50,247 nucleotides of DNA from Candidatus Parcubacteria bacterium (GTDB lineage: Bacteria; Patescibacteriota; Minisyncoccia; Minisyncoccales; PEYH01): assembly GCA_026395615.1 (NCBI GenBank), contig JAPLYH010000051.1, positions 6,318 through 56,564 of the forward strand. The letters are read 5' to 3'. The position numbers and the translations under genes are program-made. A model generated the notes under the pieces. That model worked only from the letters and a program-made list of their open reading frames with translations. It was not told the origin of the DNA and did no database searches. Of the stretch, positions 9,007 through 36,913 are shown piece after piece; the first letter of the stretch is position 1; every line of letters begins with the position of its first letter.

Positions 9007-10647
9007 CTACTGCTTGTCTGAACCAACCATCTCGGCTTCAAGCGCAGCTATGAGCTCGCCGCCTCGTTGTAGTAAGGCCTTGAGTTCTCCCGCCATAGCG
9101 CTTATTCGCTCTTGCCGAGTAGTTGTCGCCGGCTTCTTTGTTCTGATCCGACCGGAAACTGGTCTAGGCACTGGGACATCTCTTAGCCAGTGAAGCTTAG
9201 ACAGCCCTTCACACTTCTCCTGTGGAACCAACCAGCCCCAATACTTAAACCATGCGTACTGAGCACAACCGACTCTTACGCTACCGAACTTCTTAATCAA
9301 TACTCCGCTCGCTCCGCTCACCAGCCATCCTTCTCCTTCAGGATGTTTTTCCTGCGCTGCAGCACGAAGCGCGGCATATGCTTCGCAACGATTCCCTGGT
9401 AATCCAGCTGGGAAATCTATTGCTTCTCCTCCACTCCTCGCTCCCACCTGTTTACCAGCTGCCTTAGGCACCGGAACGACTCTCAACCAGTAGGTTCTTG
9501 CTCCGCCACCCTGTTCCTTCCTACCCTCTTCTGTAGTAAGCCAACCAGCACTTCTCAATCGCATGAAAAGCTTACTAGCTATTCGTTTTCCGAATCGTTC
9601 GCGCAAAACTCCGCTTGCCCTGCACACCAACCATCCTCCTTCAGGATGTTCTTCTTTTGCAGCAGCAAGAAGTATTGCATACGCCTCACGGTATTTCTCT
9701 GGTAGGTCAATAGGAGAATCCTTTACTTCTCCTATATCTCTTGGTTCCGTTCTTGGTTCCGTTCTTGGTTCCGTTCTTGGTTCCGTTCTTGGTTCCGTTC
9801 TTGGTTCCGTTCTTGGTTCCGCCCGCTTACCAGCTGTCTTAGATACTGGAACGTCCCTAAGCCAGTGGTCTTTACCTCTGCTTCCTTCTGCGTTCTTTGT
9901 TTCTTCTGAGGTCAACCAACCATTTCCCTTAAACCAGGCATAGTAGGTTGAAAACCCTTTACGGCCAAACTTACCAACCAAAACGCCCAATGCTCTTGGT
10001 ACTATCCATCCCCCTTCGGGATGTTTTCCTTGCGCTGCGGCACGAAGTGCGGCATATGCTTCACGGTATTTCTCCGGCAGACCAGCAGGAAAGTCACCTT
10101 CAATCGGATGAATCGACTGCCGTTGAACCACCGGAGTGATTGGTGAAACAGCTGGTGTTGTTGGTTTCTTGACAGCAAGAGCAGCCAGCTTACGTGGTAG
10201 AGCCAACTCTGGCATCTTTTCTGCTGTCGCTCGTGCCGAAGGTTGCAACCCAATTCCACTCAATTCTCGTAGTGATCTCTCTTGATGTAACGTCTCTATT
10301 CCCCTTGAACAAAGATGAGTTCCTCTGCCAGCAGGCCTCCTCTTAGCATTGACTGCTTCTCCTTCTCTTCTCCTCGGTCGTTCCGCATCGTCTGCGAATA
10401 GATTCACATTCGGTCTGTCTTGCCAAAGCCATCCAGTATCGCCTCTGATTCTTGCTGCTCTTGAGTGAATCTGGTAGGCCTCTTTGACCTCGGAAAGACT
10501 GACCGTAGGATGTTGATCTACTACTGCCGCCAACAAAGAATTCAGTGAAGCGTGGCTAATGCCGTCGCCCTTTACCCCGAGGATTAGCTGTTTGAATGAC
10601 TCATAGCCATCCAACTTAACTATCCCCACTCCCGTTCCGTTTCCCAT
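9007..10647 (-). CDS. GC-rich repeat protein of unknown function (three ~100-aa internal repeats plus an (EPRT)n linker)
   Basis: ATG at 10647 lies 7 nt after GAGGAGGG (10655-10662). The 546-aa product carries three copies of FPAGLPEKYREAYAALRAAAQ.KHPEGGW...GWL...HWLRDVPV and a C-terminal helical tail. It is clearly more GC-rich than its flanks. Confidence 0.7.
   Translation of the reverse strand: MGNGTGVGIVKLDGYESFKQLILGVKGDGISHASLNSLLAAVVDQHPTVSLSEVKEAYQIHSRAARIRGDTGWLWQDRPNVNLFADDAERPRRREGEAVNAKRRPAGRGTHLCSRGIETLHQERSLRELSGIGLQPSARATAEKMPELALPRKLAALAVKKPTTPAVSPITPVVQRQSIHPIEGDFPAGLPEKYREAYAALRAAAQGKHPEGGWIVPRALGVLVGKFGRKGFSTYYAWFKGNGWLTSEETKNAEGSRGKDHWLRDVPVSKTAGKRAEPRTEPRTEPRTEPRTEPRTEPRTEPRDIGEVKDSPIDLPEKYREAYAILLAAAKEEHPEGGWLVCRASGVLRERFGKRIASKLFMRLRSAGWLTTEEGRKEQGGGARTYWLRVVPVPKAAGKQVGARSGGEAIDFPAGLPGNRCEAYAALRAAAQEKHPEGEGWLVSGASGVLIKKFGSVRVGCAQYAWFKYWGWLVPQEKCEGLSKLHWLRDVPVPRPVSGRIRTKKPATTTRQERISAMAGELKALLQRGGELIAALEAEMVGSDKQ
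9743..9826. repeat. 12-bp tandem repeat ggttccgttctt, about 7 units
   Basis: Six perfect units plus a diverged seventh. It encodes EPRTEPRT... inside the 9007-10647 gene. Confidence 0.95.
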
Positions 10648-10736
10648 TTTACATCCCTCCTCTCGTTCTTGAGATTTGCTCTTGGCTTGCCGTTGATTCA
10701 GACATAAATTGGCAAAGAGCAAAAGAACATATTTTG

Positions 10737-13505: not shown

Positions 13506-13538
13506 AAATTACGCGGCCGGGGAGCGTGGGACAGAAAT
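13506..13538 (+). repeat. R element, long variant (copy R1)
   Basis: aaattacgcggccggggagcgtgggacagaaat. It is homologous over about 55 nt to the copy at 33759-33791 on the minus strand. Confidence 0.8.
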
Positions 13539-13633: not shown

Positions 13634-13657
13634 ACTACGATGCCGGGTGGCGTAATT
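13634..13657 (+). repeat. R element core (copy R2)
   Basis: actacgatgccgggtggcgtaatt followed by ttttt. It sits between 15-nt direct repeats aagtttgagtaaaaa at 13607-13621 and 13693-13707. Confidence 0.85.
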
Positions 13658-13756: not shown

Positions 13757-15157
13757 ATGATTAAAGTATATAATTCCCTAAGCAAAAAAGAAGAGATATT
13801 TAAACCCTTAAAAGATAAAAAGGTTGCTTTTTATGTATGCGGGCCAACTGTTTACGGTCCCGGACATATTGGGCATGCGCGAACATATATTGCCTTTGAT
13901 ATCATCAGAAGATATTTGGAGTATAAGGGCTATGATGTGAGATACGCGATGAATATAACCGATATTCATGATGATATTATCACGGCAGCTCAAATGCAAA
14001 AAACCGATATTTTCACTTTAGGAAATAAGTACACAAAAATGTTTTTACATGACCAAAATAATTTGGGTATTAAAAAGGCAAATTTTTATCCAAGGGTAAC
14101 AGAAAACATAAAAGAGATTATAAAATTCATTCAAGAACTGGAAGAAAAAGGGTTTGCTTACGAAAAAGATGATTCTGTATATTTTGACGTTTCAAAATTC
14201 AAGGACTATGGAAAACTCTCCGGAATTAAAATCAAAAAAGCAAAAACCGGGACAAGAGTAGAAACAGACAAATACGAGAGAAAAGAAGCCATTGATTTTG
14301 TTTTGTGGAAGAAAGCAAAACCAGGCGAACCATTTTGGGAAAGCCCTTGGGGACAAGGCAGGCCAGGCTGGCATATTGAATGCTCGGTAATGATTAAAAA
14401 ACATTTAGGAGAACAAATAGATATCCACGCTGGAGCAATAGATTTATTATTTCCCCATCATGAAAATGAAATCGCCCAAACAGAAGCGATTGCCAAGAAA
14501 AAACCATTTGTAAAATATTGGCTGCATGGCGGACTTTTAATGATAAATGGACAAAAGATGTCCAAGTCGCTTGGCAATTTTATAACCATAGAACAAGTAT
14601 TAGAAAAATGGGATTCAAGAGTTATAAGAATGTTTGTCGCTTCAAGCCATTATCAAAGCAAATTGAATTGGTCGGAAAGAAATCTCTTACAGGCTAAGAA
14701 AAATCTGGAGAAAATAGAAGAATTTATAGAAAAACTCAAAACGCAAAACGTAAAAGGTAAAACAACAACAAACTCAAAACAGATTGAATCCTTGATAAGA
14801 AAATCAAAGAAAGAATTTGAAGTGGCAATGGATGATAATTTTAATACTCCTGAAGCGCTGGCCGTATTGTTTGAAATGATGAAAAGTATAAATCCCCTAC
14901 TTGATAAAAATAAAATTGATAAAAAACAGGCAAAAGATATACTGGAGTTCTTAAAAAATATTGATAAAATTTTTAATTTCATTTTCCCTGGTAAAAAAGA
15001 AGCAATTCCTGAACAAATAAAAGAATTAGTAAAAAAGAGGGAAAAGTCAAGAAAAGATAAACAATGGCAAAAAGCAGATGAGATTAGAAAACAAATTGAA
15101 CAACTGGGGTTTAATATAAAAGATACGGCCAACGGAACGGAAGTGAAAAAGAGATAG
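13757..15157 (+). CDS. cysS: cysteine--tRNA ligase
   Basis: HIGH motif (GPGHIGHARTY), KMSKS, WHIECS zinc site and a class I CysRS length of 466 aa. Confidence 0.95.
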   Translation: MIKVYNSLSKKEEIFKPLKDKKVAFYVCGPTVYGPGHIGHARTYIAFDIIRRYLEYKGYDVRYAMNITDIHDDIITAAQMQKTDIFTLGNKYTKMFLHDQNNLGIKKANFYPRVTENIKEIIKFIQELEEKGFAYEKDDSVYFDVSKFKDYGKLSGIKIKKAKTGTRVETDKYERKEAIDFVLWKKAKPGEPFWESPWGQGRPGWHIECSVMIKKHLGEQIDIHAGAIDLLFPHHENEIAQTEAIAKKKPFVKYWLHGGLLMINGQKMSKSLGNFITIEQVLEKWDSRVIRMFVASSHYQSKLNWSERNLLQAKKNLEKIEEFIEKLKTQNVKGKTTTNSKQIESLIRKSKKEFEVAMDDNFNTPEALAVLFEMMKSINPLLDKNKIDKKQAKDILEFLKNIDKIFNFIFPGKKEAIPEQIKELVKKREKSRKDKQWQKADEIRKQIEQLGFNIKDTANGTEVKKR

Positions 15158-15171
15158 AATTATTATCCACA

Positions 15172-29870: not shown

Positions 29871-30272
29871 ATTAATATTTTGATGCTTATTTAAAAAGGG
29901 AAAGCGAGAGCTTCTTCTAGCGCGAAACTTCCCCCTTGACCACTTTTACGGCTTGTGCAGCTAACGCGTGGTCAACTAGTATCTCGCTAGAATCAGCTCT
30001 CGCTTGTGGACCTCTGAATCCTGCAATTGGGTTTGTGCGGACCCACCAAGATCCTACTCTATCCTAGAAAAGGACAGAGGGGGCTATTCACAGTCACTAG
30101 AACGAGCATCAAACTCATCACTGAGTAGCTCTACTAGCCGTGTAAACCCCGGATTGATCGCGACAGCAACCTGTTTAGTACGAGAGGTACGCCCTGGGGT
30201 GCATGGGGATGGCACCCACAGTTCTCGCCCTTCTTAAACTTGGACAATTCGCCATTGCCCACCTCCTCCTTA
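29871..30272 (-). ncRNA. candidate structured RNA or dual-function transcript (island C), unassigned
   Basis: GC-rich block between a predicted promoter and terminator. It has a 100-nt hairpin (29904-29922 pairing 29985-30003) enclosing the helix 29936-29943/29968-29975. Only a 26-codon ORF lies at its 5' end. Confidence 0.4.
30175..30255 (-). CDS. possible 26-aa basic peptide at the 5' end of island C
   Basis: ATG lies 5-9 nt after AAGGAGGAGGTG. The peptide is MANCPSLRRARTVGAIPMHPRAYLSY. The only support is the ribosome-binding site. Confidence 0.3.
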   Translation of the reverse strand: MANCPSLRRARTVGAIPMHPRAYLSY

Positions 30273-30278
30273 ATTCAC

Positions 30279-30307
30279 ATTGTACACCCAACCTTGAAAA
30301 ATGTCAA
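30279..30307 (-). promoter_or_regulatory. near-consensus sigma70 promoter of island C
   Basis: Minus strand reads TTGACA (30307-30302), 17 nt, TACAAT (30284-30279). Confidence 0.6.
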
Positions 30308-30309
30308 GC

Positions 30310-30339
30310 AAAAAACCGCTTTCGAAAAAGCGATTTTTT
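30310..30339 (-). terminator. hairpin terminator after tRNA-Val
   Basis: cgcttt-cgaa-aaagcg flanked by A and T runs. It abuts the -35 box of island C. Confidence 0.6.
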
Positions 30340-30370
30340 GTGCCTGCACTGCGTAGCCTTAGCGAAGCAG

Positions 30371-31804: not shown

Positions 31805-32332
31805 TTATTTTTCTGCAATTGCCCCAAGGGCATAAACCAGACCTTTAATATTTTCTCTCTGCACAGTCACAAACCCTGAAATCGGCGCAGAAAGCGTTCC
31901 TACTAATTTTGCGAAAAGTTCTTGTTTTGACGGTAATTGGGCTAATACGATAACATCCTCTGCTGACATGAATTCGCTTTTTATTCCATCAGAAATATAT
32001 CCGCCAATAAGCTTTAACTTGTTCTGTTCTTGTGAAAACTGATAAGCGGTTTTTACTGGAGCTATTTCATCCTCAAACCCAAAAATTAATGCTACTTCAT
32101 TTCCTAATTTTTCTTTAGGAAGATCAATATTTTTTTCCTTAAAAGCAAGCTGAGCCAATGTTTTCTTAACTACTATAAACTTTGCTCCTGCTTGTTTTAA
32201 TTTTTTTCTTAAATTAACCAAATCGCCGAATTTTAAACCAGAAAAATTGACAAAAACTATTGATTTTTGTTTTTCAAGGTTTTCTTTTACGGTTTCTATT
32301 ATTTGTTTCTTTTTTTGTTTTGTTAATGGCAT
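31805..32332 (-). CDS. rplJ: 50S ribosomal protein L10
   Basis: 175 aa lying immediately upstream of rplL, with L10-like FVNFSGLKFGDLVNLRKKLKQAGAKFIVVKKTL. Confidence 0.9.
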   Translation of the reverse strand: MPLTKQKKKQIIETVKENLEKQKSIVFVNFSGLKFGDLVNLRKKLKQAGAKFIVVKKTLAQLAFKEKNIDLPKEKLGNEVALIFGFEDEIAPVKTAYQFSQEQNKLKLIGGYISDGIKSEFMSAEDVIVLAQLPSKQELFAKLVGTLSAPISGFVTVQRENIKGLVYALGAIAEK

Positions 32333-32468
32333 ATGTTTAAAAAAATAAATTGTCTCCGGAATTACCGCAGACCAAATAATTTAAATGACAACTGTCATTA
32401 ACTATCTACCTCGATGGGATTTATCCGCAAGCGGACCCATTGTCTACGGCTTCACTTTTTTAATTACG
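32333..32468 (-). promoter_or_regulatory. structured 5' leader of rplJ (possible L10-leader-type autoregulatory element)
   Basis: About 135 nt between the predicted TSS and the ATG carry three hairpins: atggg-tccgcttgcgga-taaa-cccat, aatgaca-gt-tgtcatt and gtctgcgg-taat-tccggagac. The family assignment is not verifiable by eye. Confidence 0.3.
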
Positions 32469-32473
32469 ATATC

Positions 32474-32501
32474 AGTATATATTTTTAAAAAATCTTGTCA
32501 A
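32474..32501 (-). promoter_or_regulatory. sigma70-like promoter of rplJ-rplL
   Basis: Minus strand reads TTGACA (32501-32496), 16 nt, TATACT (32479-32474). Confidence 0.55.
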
Positions 32502-32516
32502 GTCCATTGGAGCCCC

Positions 32517-32541
32517 ATTACGATGCCGGGTGGCGTAATTT
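32517..32541 (+). repeat. R element core (copy R3), left boundary of island D
   Basis: attacgatgccgggtggcgtaattt is identical over 25 nt to 33157-33181. Confidence 0.9.
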
Positions 32542-32554
32542 ATATAATTTATAT

Positions 32555-32599
32555 TTTAAAAGAAGTAGCGGGGACGCACACCGTGTGCACATCCCCGCT
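32555..32599 (-). terminator. intrinsic terminator of island D
   Basis: Minus strand reads agcgggga-tgt-gcaca-cgg-tgtgc-g-tccccgct followed by acttctttt. Confidence 0.65.
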
Positions 32600-32662
32600 C
32601 ATGTTCCGCCGCTCAATTACTCTAGTAGTTTCGCGAACTACTTCGTCAAATCTCGCAGTACG

Positions 32663-32872
32663 CTACGCCTTAGCCGTACAACGAGCCTCGGCCTTGATGC
32701 CGCAGCAACGAGCGACAGAATCCCCGAGATCACAATGCGAGACCTGCCGAACGCAACCGCTTCGCAGTTGAGCCTTAGCAGCTCGCATCTGATCGATCAA
32801 ACCACGTACACAACCCGGACCTGCTCGGATATTCATCGCCGATCTACCTCCTGAAAAAAGCTGCCGGATCAT
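32663..32872 (-). CDS. small Cys-rich protein (69 aa), island D gene 2
   Basis: GGGAGG lies 6 nt before the ATG. The product MIRQLFSGGRSAMNIRAGPGCVRGLIDQMRAAKAQLRSGCVRQVSHCDLGDSVARCCGIKAEARCTAKA has 7 Cys. First codon positions are G-rich, which is coding-like. Confidence 0.4.
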   Translation of the reverse strand: MIRQLFSGGRSAMNIRAGPGCVRGLIDQMRAAKAQLRSGCVRQVSHCDLGDSVARCCGIKAEARCTAKA

Positions 32873-32896
32873 AGTGCGCCTCCCATCGACGAGGGT

Positions 32897-33067
32897 CTAG
32901 GCCACCAGTCCAGCAACACAGCTCGTCGTTCGGGTCGTCTGAGTGGAAACGCCTCGGCTCATAGTGATCTTCATCACTGCCTTGTCGCTTCCAGCTCCAG
33001 CTTCACGTCCTGGCGTTGTCCGCATCGCAAACAACACAGGACTCGCTCGCGAGCCGTAGTTTCGCAT
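32897..33067 (-). CDS. possible 56-aa protein, island D gene 1
   Basis: GAAGGAGG (33075-33082) lies 7 nt before the ATG at 33067. The product is MRNYGSRASPVLFAMRTTPGREAGAGSDKAVMKITMSRGVSTQTTRTTSCVAGLVA. About 70 percent of first codon positions are purines. It is below the track's length cutoff. Confidence 0.3.
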   Translation of the reverse strand: MRNYGSRASPVLFAMRTTPGREAGAGSDKAVMKITMSRGVSTQTTRTTSCVAGLVA

Positions 33068-33109
33068 TATCTATCCTCCTTCGCCATAGAGAATCTCTTG
33101 GCTATTTTT

Positions 33110-33138
33110 ATAATACAAAAAATGACCCTTTGGGTCAA
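33110..33138 (-). promoter_or_regulatory. sigma70-like promoter of island D
   Basis: Minus strand reads TTGACC (33138-33133), 17 nt, TATTAT (33115-33110). Confidence 0.55.
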
Positions 33139-33155
33139 TATTTGTTCGATTTGTG

Positions 33156-33181
33156 AATTACGATGCCGGGTGGCGTAATTT
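33156..33181 (+). repeat. R element core (copy R4), right boundary of island D
   Basis: aattacgatgccgggtggcgtaattt starts one base after the DJ-1-family stop codon. Confidence 0.9.
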
Positions 33182-33709
33182 TTAAAGAGTGTGTAATTTT
33201 TCAATAATAGCCCGACTGAATTCATTAACAGCGGATGGGCCGTTGGCAGTAATAATGTTTCCATCACAAACTACTGGTTTATCAACATATTCCGCTCCAT
33301 TTTCTTGCAAAACTTTAATTGGTTTTTTATCCATTACACTTGACCAGATTGTCGCCTTCCTCCCTTGTAGAACACCCGCTGTTGCCAATATTGCCGGGGC
33401 AATACAAATTGCTGCCAATAATTTTTCCTGTTTAACCATTTCTTGAATAATATTTAAAACTTTCTCATCATCAATATATTTATAAGCTCCTGGGCCACCG
33501 ACAAACATTATTGCATCAAATTCAGATATATTTATTTCATCAAGCACAATATCTATATCTGCTTCTCCCCCGCTTCCGCCAATCGCTGTGCCTTTTTGTG
33601 AACTAACTGTACTCACTTCAAAACCAGCATTTATAAAAGCTTGTTTCGGAATAAAATATTCCTCATCCCGAAAATTTCTAAAAGCTATTATTATCGCAAT
33701 TTTCATCAC
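33182..33709 (-). CDS. DJ-1/PfpI family protein
   Basis: 175 aa with nucleophile-elbow Cys in LLAAICIAPAILATAG, plus DAIMFVGGPG. Confidence 0.85.
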   Translation of the reverse strand: MMKIAIIIAFRNFRDEEYFIPKQAFINAGFEVSTVSSQKGTAIGGSGGEADIDIVLDEINISEFDAIMFVGGPGAYKYIDDEKVLNIIQEMVKQEKLLAAICIAPAILATAGVLQGRKATIWSSVMDKKPIKVLQENGAEYVDKPVVCDGNIITANGPSAVNEFSRAIIEKLHTL

Positions 33710-33740: not shown

Positions 33741-33769
33741 ATTATAACACAAAATCTAATTTCTGTCCC
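33741..33769 (-). promoter_or_regulatory. promoter-like pair carried by R5, upstream of the DJ-1-family gene
   Basis: Minus strand reads GGGACA (33769-33764), 17 nt, TATAAT (33746-33741), 32 nt before the ATG. Confidence 0.5.
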
Positions 33770-33791
33770 ACGCCACCCGGCATCGTAATTT
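33759..33791 (-). repeat. R element, long variant (copy R5)
   Basis: Minus strand reads aaattacgatgccgggtggcgtgggacagaaat. Truncated left arms aaactacgatgg (33793-33804) and aaaattacgcgg (33825-33836) lie beside it. Confidence 0.85.
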
Positions 33792-35454: not shown

Positions 35455-35500
35455 ATATAAAGCGAGGATATTTTATTTTAAGATGCATCACGCAGGCCGA

Positions 35501-35676
35501 GCGGGCATGGTTCCCCGCGACAAAGAGGAAGAGCGAGGCAATAAGGTTTCAGGGCAGCTCCCGCAGGTCTGTTTGGCATGGTCCCCGAGCGAAGCGAGGG
35601 GCAAACAGACCGAGGGACGCAGGCTGACAAATCTCGCTGGAGATTTGGACAGCCAGTGACCTGAAATCTTATTGCC
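35501..35676 (-). ncRNA. candidate structured RNA (island E), unassigned; strand uncertain
   Basis: A 17-bp closing helix (35537-35553/35660-35676) encloses a long hairpin (35566-35575/35602-35611 with a cccc/gggg apex) and a second hairpin (35623-35653, 8-bp stem with a 4-nt loop). A further stem lies at 35501-35518. There is no RBS-preceded ORF. Confidence 0.35.
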
Positions 35677-35683
35677 GAGCGGC

Positions 35684-36913
35684 TTACTCATAACCCCTCA
35701 ACGCATCTGTTGGTCTCAACTTCGCAGCTTTGCGGGCAGGTAAATATCCTGAAAGACAACCGATTAAAAACGAGAAAAATAATCCAAATATTATCAAAGA
35801 GGCGGGCATATACGCTTCCAGTAAGAAACTTCCGCTTGCTCGGCTATAACCTTCTATAAGCTTGGCAACGATTAAGCCAAAGATTACTCCACCAGCTCCG
35901 CCAATCAAACCTAAAATCCCTGATTCTATAAGAAAAATTGAAATAACAGCGCTATTCTTAGCTCCTACTGCCTTCAAAACACCAATTTCTTTTGTCCTTT
36001 CGCGAACAGAAGTAAACATTGTATTCATAATTCCAAGACCGCCGACTAAAATTGATATACTTGCAAAAAGCATTACGGCTGCTTGAATTACTCCAACAAT
36101 TCCGCCAGCTATATTGCCCATCTTTTCTGATGTAAGAACTGAAAAATCAGAAACATTTTCTCCTCTTTTTCTCTTTCTTACTTCATCCAATGCCTTTTTA
36201 ATTTTAGCTGCTAATTCATCCGGAGAAACTCCTTCTTTTGCTTTCACCATAATCATTAAAGCACTCCCATCTCTCTCCCCTGTCACCTGTTGATAAACAG
36301 GCCTGTCTAAATAAACAGATGTATCATCGCTTTTACTCCCAATAGAGTTCAATATTCCCACCACTCTGAAAGTTCTGCCATTAATAGTGGCCGCATCTCC
36401 TACTCTGATTCTTCTCCCAAAAAAATCTTTCTGCGCTACCAAGCTGCCGAGCAATATTTCTCTTTTTCCTGGAGATGGCCAAGTTCCTTCGGATAAACTC
36501 CATCCCTGAAAAGTGCTCAAAAAATCCTTACCCTCGTCCCAGGGAAAACTTACTAAAAAAATTACTTTTTGCTCATTATTATAACGCATTAGCTGTGATT
36601 TTTGAGAAGTCGGCAACACCACATCAACTCCTTCTACTTTTTTAATCGTCAAGATATCTTCTTCACTCAACATTTGTCCGCCCATAAATGTGGCTATAGG
36701 ATTATCTATTGCTCCAGGCATAACAAGAATAACGTCTCCTCCTAAAGAATTTAATTGTTTAAGAATAGAATTCTTGATTCCACCACTCAAGGAAATAAGA
36801 GTAATAACCAAAAAGATGCCAACTACTATACCAAAAATAGTTAGCCAACTTCTCAGTTTTCTGTTTCTAAGATTTTTAATAGCAAGTTTAAAATATTCTT
36901 TTATTATTGCCAT
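35684..36913 (-). CDS. ABC transporter permease, MacB/FtsX family (second copy)
   Basis: 409 aa with the same architecture as 818-2041. It ends ...GYLPARKAAKLRPTDALRGYE. Confidence 0.85.
   Translation of the reverse strand: MAIIKEYFKLAIKNLRNRKLRSWLTIFGIVVGIFLVITLISLSGGIKNSILKQLNSLGGDVILVMPGAIDNPIATFMGGQMLSEEDILTIKKVEGVDVVLPTSQKSQLMRYNNEQKVIFLVSFPWDEGKDFLSTFQGWSLSEGTWPSPGKREILLGSLVAQKDFFGRRIRVGDAATINGRTFRVVGILNSIGSKSDDTSVYLDRPVYQQVTGERDGSALMIMVKAKEGVSPDELAAKIKKALDEVRKRKRGENVSDFSVLTSEKMGNIAGGIVGVIQAAVMLFASISILVGGLGIMNTMFTSVRERTKEIGVLKAVGAKNSAVISIFLIESGILGLIGGAGGVIFGLIVAKLIEGYSRASGSFLLEAYMPASLIIFGLFFSFLIGCLSGYLPARKAAKLRPTDALRGYE

Follow-up and report, generated by a model that had tools for sequence, protein, structure and literature searches.

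Does a perfect direct-repeat bracket around a small GC-rich block in a bacterial genome mark a mobile cassette? The question is raised by positions 32517–33181 of a 50,247-nucleotide stretch (hereafter, the window) of contig JAPLYH010000051.1 from Candidatus Parcubacteria bacterium, where two identical 25-nt repeats enclose a GC-rich block (hereafter, the island) wedged between a gene of the DJ-1/PfpI family and the promoter of the ribosomal protein gene rplJ. An earlier note, made from the sequence alone, interpreted this arrangement as the geometry of a site-specifically inserted cassette that recombination between the repeats would excise. The comparisons described here make a two-part answer the probable one, although well short of certain: the repeats would be solo copies of a family resembling the repetitive extragenic palindromic (REP) elements, and the island would be a vertically inherited, structured mRNA for one small protein, the product of the open reading frame (ORF) denoted ORF2.

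The repeats and their family

The sequence ATTACGATGCCGGGTGGCGTAATTT is indeed present, in the same orientation, at 32517–32541 (the rplJ side) and at 33157–33181 (the DJ-1 side), and such a 25-mer match appears in none of 100 dinucleotide shuffles, so that the chance expectation is none. The pair is not unique, given that the core recurs in the window at 13634–13656 on the plus strand (a copy of the second-repeat type described below, ACTACG...GTAATTTTTGGAG, with 1 mismatch) and at 33767–33789 on the minus strand, in addition to a degenerate copy at 13508. These 4 copies and 1 degenerate copy in 50 kb are all intergenic, and all are singlets, with no doublet among them. The repeat can form a hairpin, being an imperfect palindrome of 23 nt with an ATTACG/CGTAAT stem and an 11-nt centre (the rplJ-side element reads ATTACG-ATGCCGGGTGG-CGTAAT followed by TTT), and the sequence identity between the two copies that flank the island ends at the element edges. 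The third local copy, between the YceG and DJ-1 genes, is inverted relative to the other two, shares its first 20 nt with them and is fused to the -35 element (GGGACA) of the DJ-1 promoter.

The exact 20-mer of the window repeat, sought in JGI metagenome contigs, is present in 14 of them, in which the repeat is mostly organised as a conserved doublet. Alignment of these contigs delineates a unit of about 125 nt that consists of a first repeat (R1), a conserved 41-nt spacer, a second repeat (R2, ACT/ACA-ACG...GTAAT), TTTTTGGAG and AAAGTTATCCACAGGG. The units occupy unrelated intergenic contexts (e.g., 5' of the RNase P RNA and 23S rRNA genes). Among 39 loci fetched for comparison (designated by L-numbers), doublets with a conserved spacer and a distance of 64–65 nt are found in L005, L012, L020 and L022–L033, mostly in direct orientation, with one inverted case (L022). 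Cognate hairpins are present at orthologous and other intergenic sites of related Patescibacteria (ATTACGAGGCCCGGCCTCGTAAT in L005, L008, L012 and L022); some relatives have a perfect 9-bp stem, ATTACGAGG-CCCGG-CCTCGTAAT, and in the L012 variant, ATTACCCGC-TCCGG-GCGGGTAAT, the stem is retained through changes on both arms. An Rfam search of the doublets in nine related loci yields no match. In L031 (4255–5290) and in L020, two doublets in direct orientation flank an ORF of 236 amino acids (aa) that matches the Pfam Y1_Tnp profile with 25.9 bits, against a cut-off of 23.

Dispersed palindromes, doublets and a flanked Y1 transposase are characteristic of REP/REPIN elements and of the REP-associated tyrosine transposases, or RAYTs (Bertels & Rainey 2011, PMC3116915; PMC3337134; PMC5581495), and the doublets of L031 and L020 together with their Y1-like gene look like a REPIN/RAYT-type system in Patescibacteria, with an IS200-like end geometry. 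As in the known systems, the Patescibacteria elements are short (23-nt) imperfect palindromes, strictly intergenic and dispersed in either orientation, with frequent doublets around a conserved spacer, a putative Y1 HUH transposase gene between elements, and copies within one genome that carry the same derived variant. The differences are that the host belongs to the Parcubacteria/Patescibacteria, that the doublets are mostly direct rather than inverted, that the transposase gene lies between direct-orientation units, as between IS200/IS605 ends, that the RAYT profile score does not reach the curated cut-off, and that the unit has the 3' tail TTTTTGGAG-AAAGTTATCCACAGGG. Judging from this pattern of occurrence, the 25-nt repeats belong to a dispersed REP-like palindromic family that is apparently linked to a Y1 (IS200/RAYT-like) transposase in related genomes. 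Because such palindromes are dispersed over many unrelated loci, the two copies at the island are unlikely to be insertion or excision sites of the block.

Several further observations concern the repeat family itself. The doublet of about 125 nt is also held by L024, L025, L026, L030 and L033. In L027 and L030, just 5' of the repeat at L030 position 2042, the first 11 nt of the element (ATTACGACGTT) are tandemly duplicated twice before the full copy, which may reflect successive rounds of cleavage and joining at the foot of the hairpin. The motif GTTATCCACAGGG, with the DnaA-box consensus TTATCCACA inside it, is regularly located 3' of the second repeat and 5' of promoters (L005 around 9763; L022 around 2476 and 3107; L012 around 9547, in reverse). 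The single copy of this motif in the window, at 15163–15171, follows a gene that ends at 15157 and adjoins a terminator hairpin.

History of the gap between DJ-1 and rplJ

The gap between DJ-1 and rplJ was compared in eight lineages, starting from L10 homologues and the contigs that encode them. Homologues of the island are present in two loci, L007, the contig of which begins inside the island, and L039, which has the island at full length. In both, the island terminator runs straight into the -35 element of the rplJ promoter, with no repeat between them, whereas the window has an additional 53 nt, including the rplJ-side repeat, at this place. The DJ-1-side repeat is found in L039 as the identical variant, in the same position and orientation. 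The synonymous divergence (dS) of rplJ is 0.16 between the window and L007, and 0.40 and 0.39 between these two and L039, so that L039 is the outgroup. Given that both L007 and this outgroup lack the rplJ-side repeat, that copy was gained in the window lineage after the island was in place, and the DJ-1-side copy is old since it is shared with L039. The direct-repeat bracket is, on this comparison, secondary and apparently not the footprint of a site-specific insertion.

The remaining relatives have different contents in the same gap. The empty site predicted in the earlier note, i.e., the DJ-1 stop codon, a single repeat and the rplJ promoter, does exist, with a small hairpin between the repeat and the promoter, in L022 and L035; it exists only because the gap ancestrally contains a repeat 3' of DJ-1. 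In L005, the gap holds two repeats 64 nt apart and nothing more. In L008–L011, it contains a tiny AT-rich ORF with a terminator and two hairpins, one of which is cognate, and in L012–L019, one or two repeats are followed by an unrelated GC-rich module of about 300 nt with its own promoter, Shine-Dalgarno sequence (SD), 16-codon ORF and terminator. The possibility that the L012 and L008 inserts are diverged homologues of the island was ruled out because no similarity was found, and the L012 insert folds modestly (z = -2.6). As observations on the L012 module in its own right, it occupies 9560–9870 in L012 and is also present in L013–L018, with a strong SD and the 16-codon ORF MRARASPRVSSMRFRV; compared to L012, L018 shows a 17-nt duplication as well as a deletion of 36 nt, through which one repeat hairpin is lost.

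The divergence of the island tracks that of the flanking genes, as vertical descent predicts, and same-species Logan contigs carry the island unchanged. Contigs nearly identical to the locus occur in the runs ERR15302213, ERR15302175, ERR15302182 and ERR15302206, and the more divergent L039 contig comes from SRR22388164; look-ups of the exact DJ-1 and YceG proteins gave no record. Since the more distant relatives lack it, the island is best described as accessory and restricted, in these comparisons, to a small clade (the window, L007 and L039). The favoured history is that the repeats would be solo copies of the REP-like family, of which the DJ-1-side copy would be old and the rplJ-side copy a later addition in the window lineage, and that the island would have been inherited vertically in the small clade, within a gap that holds different contents in other relatives.

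An alternative explanation is that the island is a mobile cassette that ends in the repeat hairpins and moves through recombination between the repeats or through a Y1 transposase supplied in trans, with a geometry like that of IS200/IS605. The two identical hairpins in direct orientation around the block, the one-repeat empty sites in L022 and L035, the direct-orientation units that bracket the Y1 gene itself in L031 and L020, and the variety of inserts in the DJ-1/rplJ gap are all compatible with this scenario. What makes it highly improbable, and disfavoured here, is that the downstream repeat is missing beside the island in L007 and in the outgroup L039, so that the bracket was formed after the arrival of the island, that L005 has both hairpins but no island, that the divergence of the island matches that of the flanking genes, and that the identity of the two copies stops at the element edges. 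Furthermore, the expectation that the same cassette would be found at other repeat copies failed: no second copy of the island was detected in the window, the 39 fetched loci, phages, plasmids, viral contigs or a metagenome scan. Specifically, blastn of the island against phages and plasmids and three exact-pattern scans of viral contigs gave nothing, tblastn of ORF2 returned just one chance match (E = 0.9), a word-indexed search with the ORF2 alignment produced no candidates, and a metagenome scan with back-translated ORF2 found nothing. Other GC-rich islands of the window were compared with this one and rejected as copies.

The same distribution bears on two classes of known mobile units. 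With integron gene cassettes and their attC sites, the island shares its small size, the hairpin-forming repeats at its boundaries and the empty site in some relatives; the differences include the lack of an integrase, the presence of a promoter of its own, a downstream repeat that is younger than the unit, and repeats that are dispersed 23-nt elements as opposed to attC sites of 57–141 nt. An integron-like unit would have both sites at every occupied locus, whereas L007 and L039 are occupied and lack the downstream repeat, and L005 has two repeats and no island. For a non-autonomous IS200/IS605-like element, the end geometry is seen in the window, but the right-hand hairpin is missing in L007 and L039. 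A more speculative scenario is that the gain of the second direct REP hairpin in the window lineage turned a resident small-protein gene into a REP-cargo-REP composite with the end geometry recognised by Y1 (IS200/RAYT-type) transposases, a nascent element that such a transposase could mobilise in trans, and that the transcript, separately, may be a new, Parcubacteria-specific class of structured RNA with a dual function and a Cys-rich peptide; only a slim chance is assigned to this combination.

The island transcript and its small protein

The description of the island as a GC-rich minus-strand unit between the repeats holds: the GC content of the block 32545–33110 is 0.54–0.57, compared to 0.37 for the window (0.367, an AT-rich genome). 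All the signals reported in the earlier note are in place, and from these the island is, as far as sequence can tell, a self-contained minus-strand transcription unit of about 550 nt with its own promoter and terminator. The sigma-70-type promoter TTGACC-17-TATTAT (33138–33110), which is conserved in L039, overlaps the small hairpin TGACCCAAAGGGTCA and its T-run (33137–33117), within which the -35 hexamer is located; this hairpin with the T-run looks like the terminator of DJ-1 as well. Next comes the leader ORF1, with 56 codons (33067–32897), which is preceded by the SD GAAGGAGG (33082–33075); the SD, the ATG and the TAG stop codon are conserved in L039. After the second ORF, the 3' untranslated region (3'UTR) contains the hairpin AGTAGTT-CGCGA-AACTACT (32642–32624); as read from the sequences, its stem is maintained by way of a G-U pair in L007 and with both arms changed (GTAGTCCC/GGGCTAC) in L039. 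The 3'-arm sequence of this hairpin is repeated at the start codon of ORF1, as a duplicated GCGAAACTAC at 33065–33056 and 32634–32625. The intrinsic terminator (32599–32555), a 15-pair GC-rich hairpin (stem 32599–32567) followed by ACTTCTTTTAAA, is conserved in L007 and L039. Three Logan contigs from three samples (L002, L003 and L004) all end at window position 32598, the outer edge of the terminator hairpin, which could be due to a drop of coverage at the hairpin or to strain variation.

The second ORF requires a revised start. A 69-codon frame (32872–32663) with a GGGAGG upstream is present as described, but it contains 6 Cys codons rather than 7, and its ATG at 32872 is not conserved in the relatives. 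The conserved start is the ATG at 32836, with GGAGG at 32851–32847, so that ORF2 on the minus strand comprises 57 codons and a stop (32836–32663) and is preceded by a leader of about 270 nt that contains ORF1. ORF2 is intact in three lineages (MNIRAGPGCVRGLIDQMRAAKAQLRSGCVRQVSHCDLGDSVARCCGIKAEARCTAKA in the window, MNIRAGPGCVRGLIDQMREVERHSVSRQVSHCDLGESVARCCGIKIEGRCTAKA in L007 and MKIRAGPGCVRGLIDQMREVERHTLLAVGRQVSHCDLGDSVDRCCGIKAETRCFA in L039), with a length of 55–57 aa, five invariant Cys residues and the organisation MNIRAGPGCVRGLIDQMR-[variable]-RQVSHCDLGDSVARCCGIKAEARCTAKA. Its pairwise ratio of nonsynonymous to synonymous divergence (dN/dS) among the three is 0.24–0.48, with a dS of 0.29–0.58 that is comparable to that of the neighbouring genes. 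In its two conserved blocks, the numbers of variable sites at codon positions 1, 2 and 3 are 2, 3 and 14 (41 sites per position; 14/19 at third positions). There is no such periodicity in the spacer between the ORFs (7, 7, 10), the 3'UTR (10, 12, 11) or the N-terminal part of ORF1 (8, 6, 5). The indel within ORF2 has 9 nt and keeps the frame, whereas the one between the ORFs has 5 nt. Coding on the opposite strand was ruled out because the antisense frame that shares the third codon positions has stop codons in two lineages; a single frame that joins ORF1 and ORF2, which are in frame with each other in the window, by read-through of the TAG codon was likewise rejected because the 5-nt indel separates the two frames in L007. 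By these sequence measures, i.e., purifying selection, three-base periodicity and a conserved frame and start, ORF2 appears to evolve as a protein. The earlier suggestion of a Cys-rich peptide fits ORF2 with its protein-coding substitution pattern, and the five invariant Cys residues suggest, as a conjecture, metal binding or disulfide bonds.

The transcript is also exceptional as an RNA. Its minimum free energy is -240 kcal/mol, with z = -6.3 relative to 100 dinucleotide shuffles, compared to z = -2.8 for the complementary (plus) strand and values around 0 for DJ-1 and rplJ mRNAs of equal length. Independent folds of the window and L007 sequences share the core and basal helices, and three variable blocks that cannot be aligned correspond to differing hairpin tips; a three-way consensus fold keeps 141 pairs, 6 of them with both partners changed. 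Nucleotide-level conservation extends over the 3' half of ORF1, for which pairing with the 5' part of ORF2 is predicted: the C-terminal block of ORF1, with 41 identical nt between the window and L039 despite a dS of 0.4–0.58 nearby, is the 5' strand of long predicted helices, and the start of ORF2 provides the 3' strand. The SD and AUG of ORF2 are predicted to lie in a small hairpin at a tip, and the SD of ORF1 to pair with the 3' end. Under the favoured reading, the island would encode an exceptionally base-paired mRNA, with helices between the 3' half of ORF1 and the 5' coding part of ORF2. To go by the predicted structure, translation of ORF2 might require that these helices be opened by ribosomes that read ORF1, i.e., coupling through unfolding.

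The same features allow a different interpretation, namely, that the island is a large structured noncoding RNA in which both ORFs are incidental or merely tolerated. In AT-rich genomes, long GC-rich intergenic regions are enriched in structured noncoding RNAs (PMC6429828, PMC8723152, PMC11109978), and the known enrichment of such regions speaks for this possibility, as do the strand-specific fold compared to host mRNAs, the flat GC content across codon positions with equal values in the untranslated parts, the coincidence of the three variable blocks with hairpin tips in each lineage, and the C-terminal block of ORF1, in which conservation exceeds that of neighbouring synonymous sites. The island resembles the structured RNA candidates of GC-rich intergenic regions (PMC6429828, PMC11109978) in being long and GC-rich in a genome with 37% GC and in having a strand-specific, highly significant fold with an adjacent terminator, but it differs from them in containing an ORF with protein-coding substitutions and in matching no described family. 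Against the noncoding interpretation, a search of 32300–33300 in Rfam 15 detects nothing in the island, either at the gathering score or at E up to 10, the sole match being the L10 leader outside the island, and the covariation is not significant with so few sequences. The codon periodicity of ORF2, its dN/dS below 0.5, the in-frame indel, and the retention of the SD, ATG and frame in three lineages are difficult to accommodate if the ORFs are incidental. A noncoding RNA is the most serious of the competing explanations and still a rather doubtful one.

A type I toxin-antitoxin-like locus, akin to hok/mok, would combine a stable folded mRNA with a leader ORF that gates a small toxic protein. 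The island has a highly folded mRNA of about 550 nt with a leader ORF 5' of an ORF of about 55 aa, the SD and AUG of which are buried in structure, an ORF1 SD that is predicted to pair with the 3' end, and a patchy presence. As in the hok/mok type I toxin mRNAs, a leader ORF precedes a protein of about 50 aa with a sequestered initiation region in a long, very stable folded mRNA, and the locus is patchily distributed and has both a promoter and a terminator of its own. Unlike the toxins, the ORF2 protein (MNIRAGPGCVRGLIDQMR...CCGIKAEARCTAKA) is not hydrophobic and, to judge by its sequence, lacks any segment of sufficient length to cross a membrane. The only promoter-like site on the plus strand (33087–33114) points away from the mRNA, does not overlap it and is not conserved in L039, so that no antisense promoter overlapping the mRNA is apparent. 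There is no sequence or profile similarity to these systems, including PADLOC and Pfam, and a toxin-antitoxin locus is therefore considered improbable.

Several results weigh against the reading of the repeats as REP-like elements and of the island as the mRNA of ORF2. The best NCBIfam match of the 236-aa ORF is REP_Tyr_transpos, with a score of 33 that falls under the cut-off of 80. As the earlier note had observed for recombinases in general, the window contains no Y1 transposase gene, other recombinase families having been screened non-exhaustively. The coding statistics of ORF2 come from three lineages and about 20 variable sites, a small sample. The GC content by codon position in ORF2 is 0.64, 0.57 and 0.50, i.e., flat, with the noncoding parts equally GC-rich; such flatness is unusual for a protein gene and fits a constraint at the RNA level. 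Neither peptide has a significant match in Pfam, PADLOC, PHROGs, NCBIfam or the PDB sequences, in agreement with the initial impression that neither is recognisable; the one candidate homologue from a HMMER search of 1.84 billion representatives, an SH3-repeat protein (E = 9.6e-4), shares only an NVRAGPG motif and was judged a chance match. AlphaFold2 applied to ORF2 alone gives a low-confidence model, with a predicted local distance difference test score (pLDDT) of 66, too poor for a fold search. In the test of covariation, 71 of 500 shuffles reach the observed score, with two or three sequences available. The N-terminal half of ORF1 is not conserved, and the translation of ORF1 is doubtful in view of an overall dN/dS of 0.89 and of an in-frame TGA in L007, at a codon that reads CGA in L039.

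Surroundings of the island and implications

The window belongs to a genome the L10 protein of which is identical to MCX6738350.1. Around the island, FtsX permease, PCMT methyltransferase, YceG, DJ-1/PfpI (33709–33182), the island, the rplJ promoter (32501–32474), the L10 leader (32467–32335, an Rfam match to RF00557), rplJ and rplL follow one another, all on the minus strand; the rplJ promoter with the L10 leader forms the downstream boundary of the variable gap. Directly 3' of rplL, L007 (1771–2842) carries a transposase gene of the IS200 family and, after it, a GC-rich ORF of 181 codons, and the window has a gene for a 259-aa protein at this position.

Other GC-rich segments of the window are of interest in themselves. 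A GC-rich island at 29880–30369 on the minus strand, next to the tRNA-Val gene, is strongly and strand-specifically folded (z = -6.4) and has no match in Rfam; in relatives, the corresponding gap is about as long, and this segment may be a conserved, unrecognised RNA gene. At 35456–35690 on the plus strand, between the FtsX and PCMT genes, there is a GC-rich island of about 230 nt with internal repeats and without an Rfam match, which has its best fold on the strand opposite to that of the genes (z = -7.2); since the corresponding gap is only 34–61 nt in L008 and L012, this segment is, by comparison of the loci, another variable insert. Finally, a 571-codon ORF with a GC content of 0.50 (9007–10722, minus strand), located by the tRNA-Gln gene, has no Pfam domain, contains about 7 copies of the 12-nt tandem repeat GGTTCCGTTCTT near 9750–9830 and shows a weak match to the PHROG 'replication initiation O-like'; it may be foreign DNA.

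The gene and the RNA of the island are real and mildly interesting, and the appearance of a cassette comes from the combination of two ordinary things, REP-type repeats and a clade-restricted orphan gene. In this reduced Patescibacteria genome, a perfect direct-repeat bracket results from REP-type elements on either side of a gene and not from cassette integration, so that a false lead is removed. The analysis documents a REP/Y1-transposase-type repeat family in Parcubacteria with a well-defined doublet unit, a variable DJ-1/rplJ gap that holds different small modules in different relatives, and an orphan, conserved, Cys-rich protein of 55–57 aa encoded in an unusually folded mRNA. No question that has long stood open is touched by these findings. 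Almost none of the small proteins and structured RNAs of uncultured episymbiotic bacteria have been characterised, which makes the island a clean candidate for tests of expression and function.

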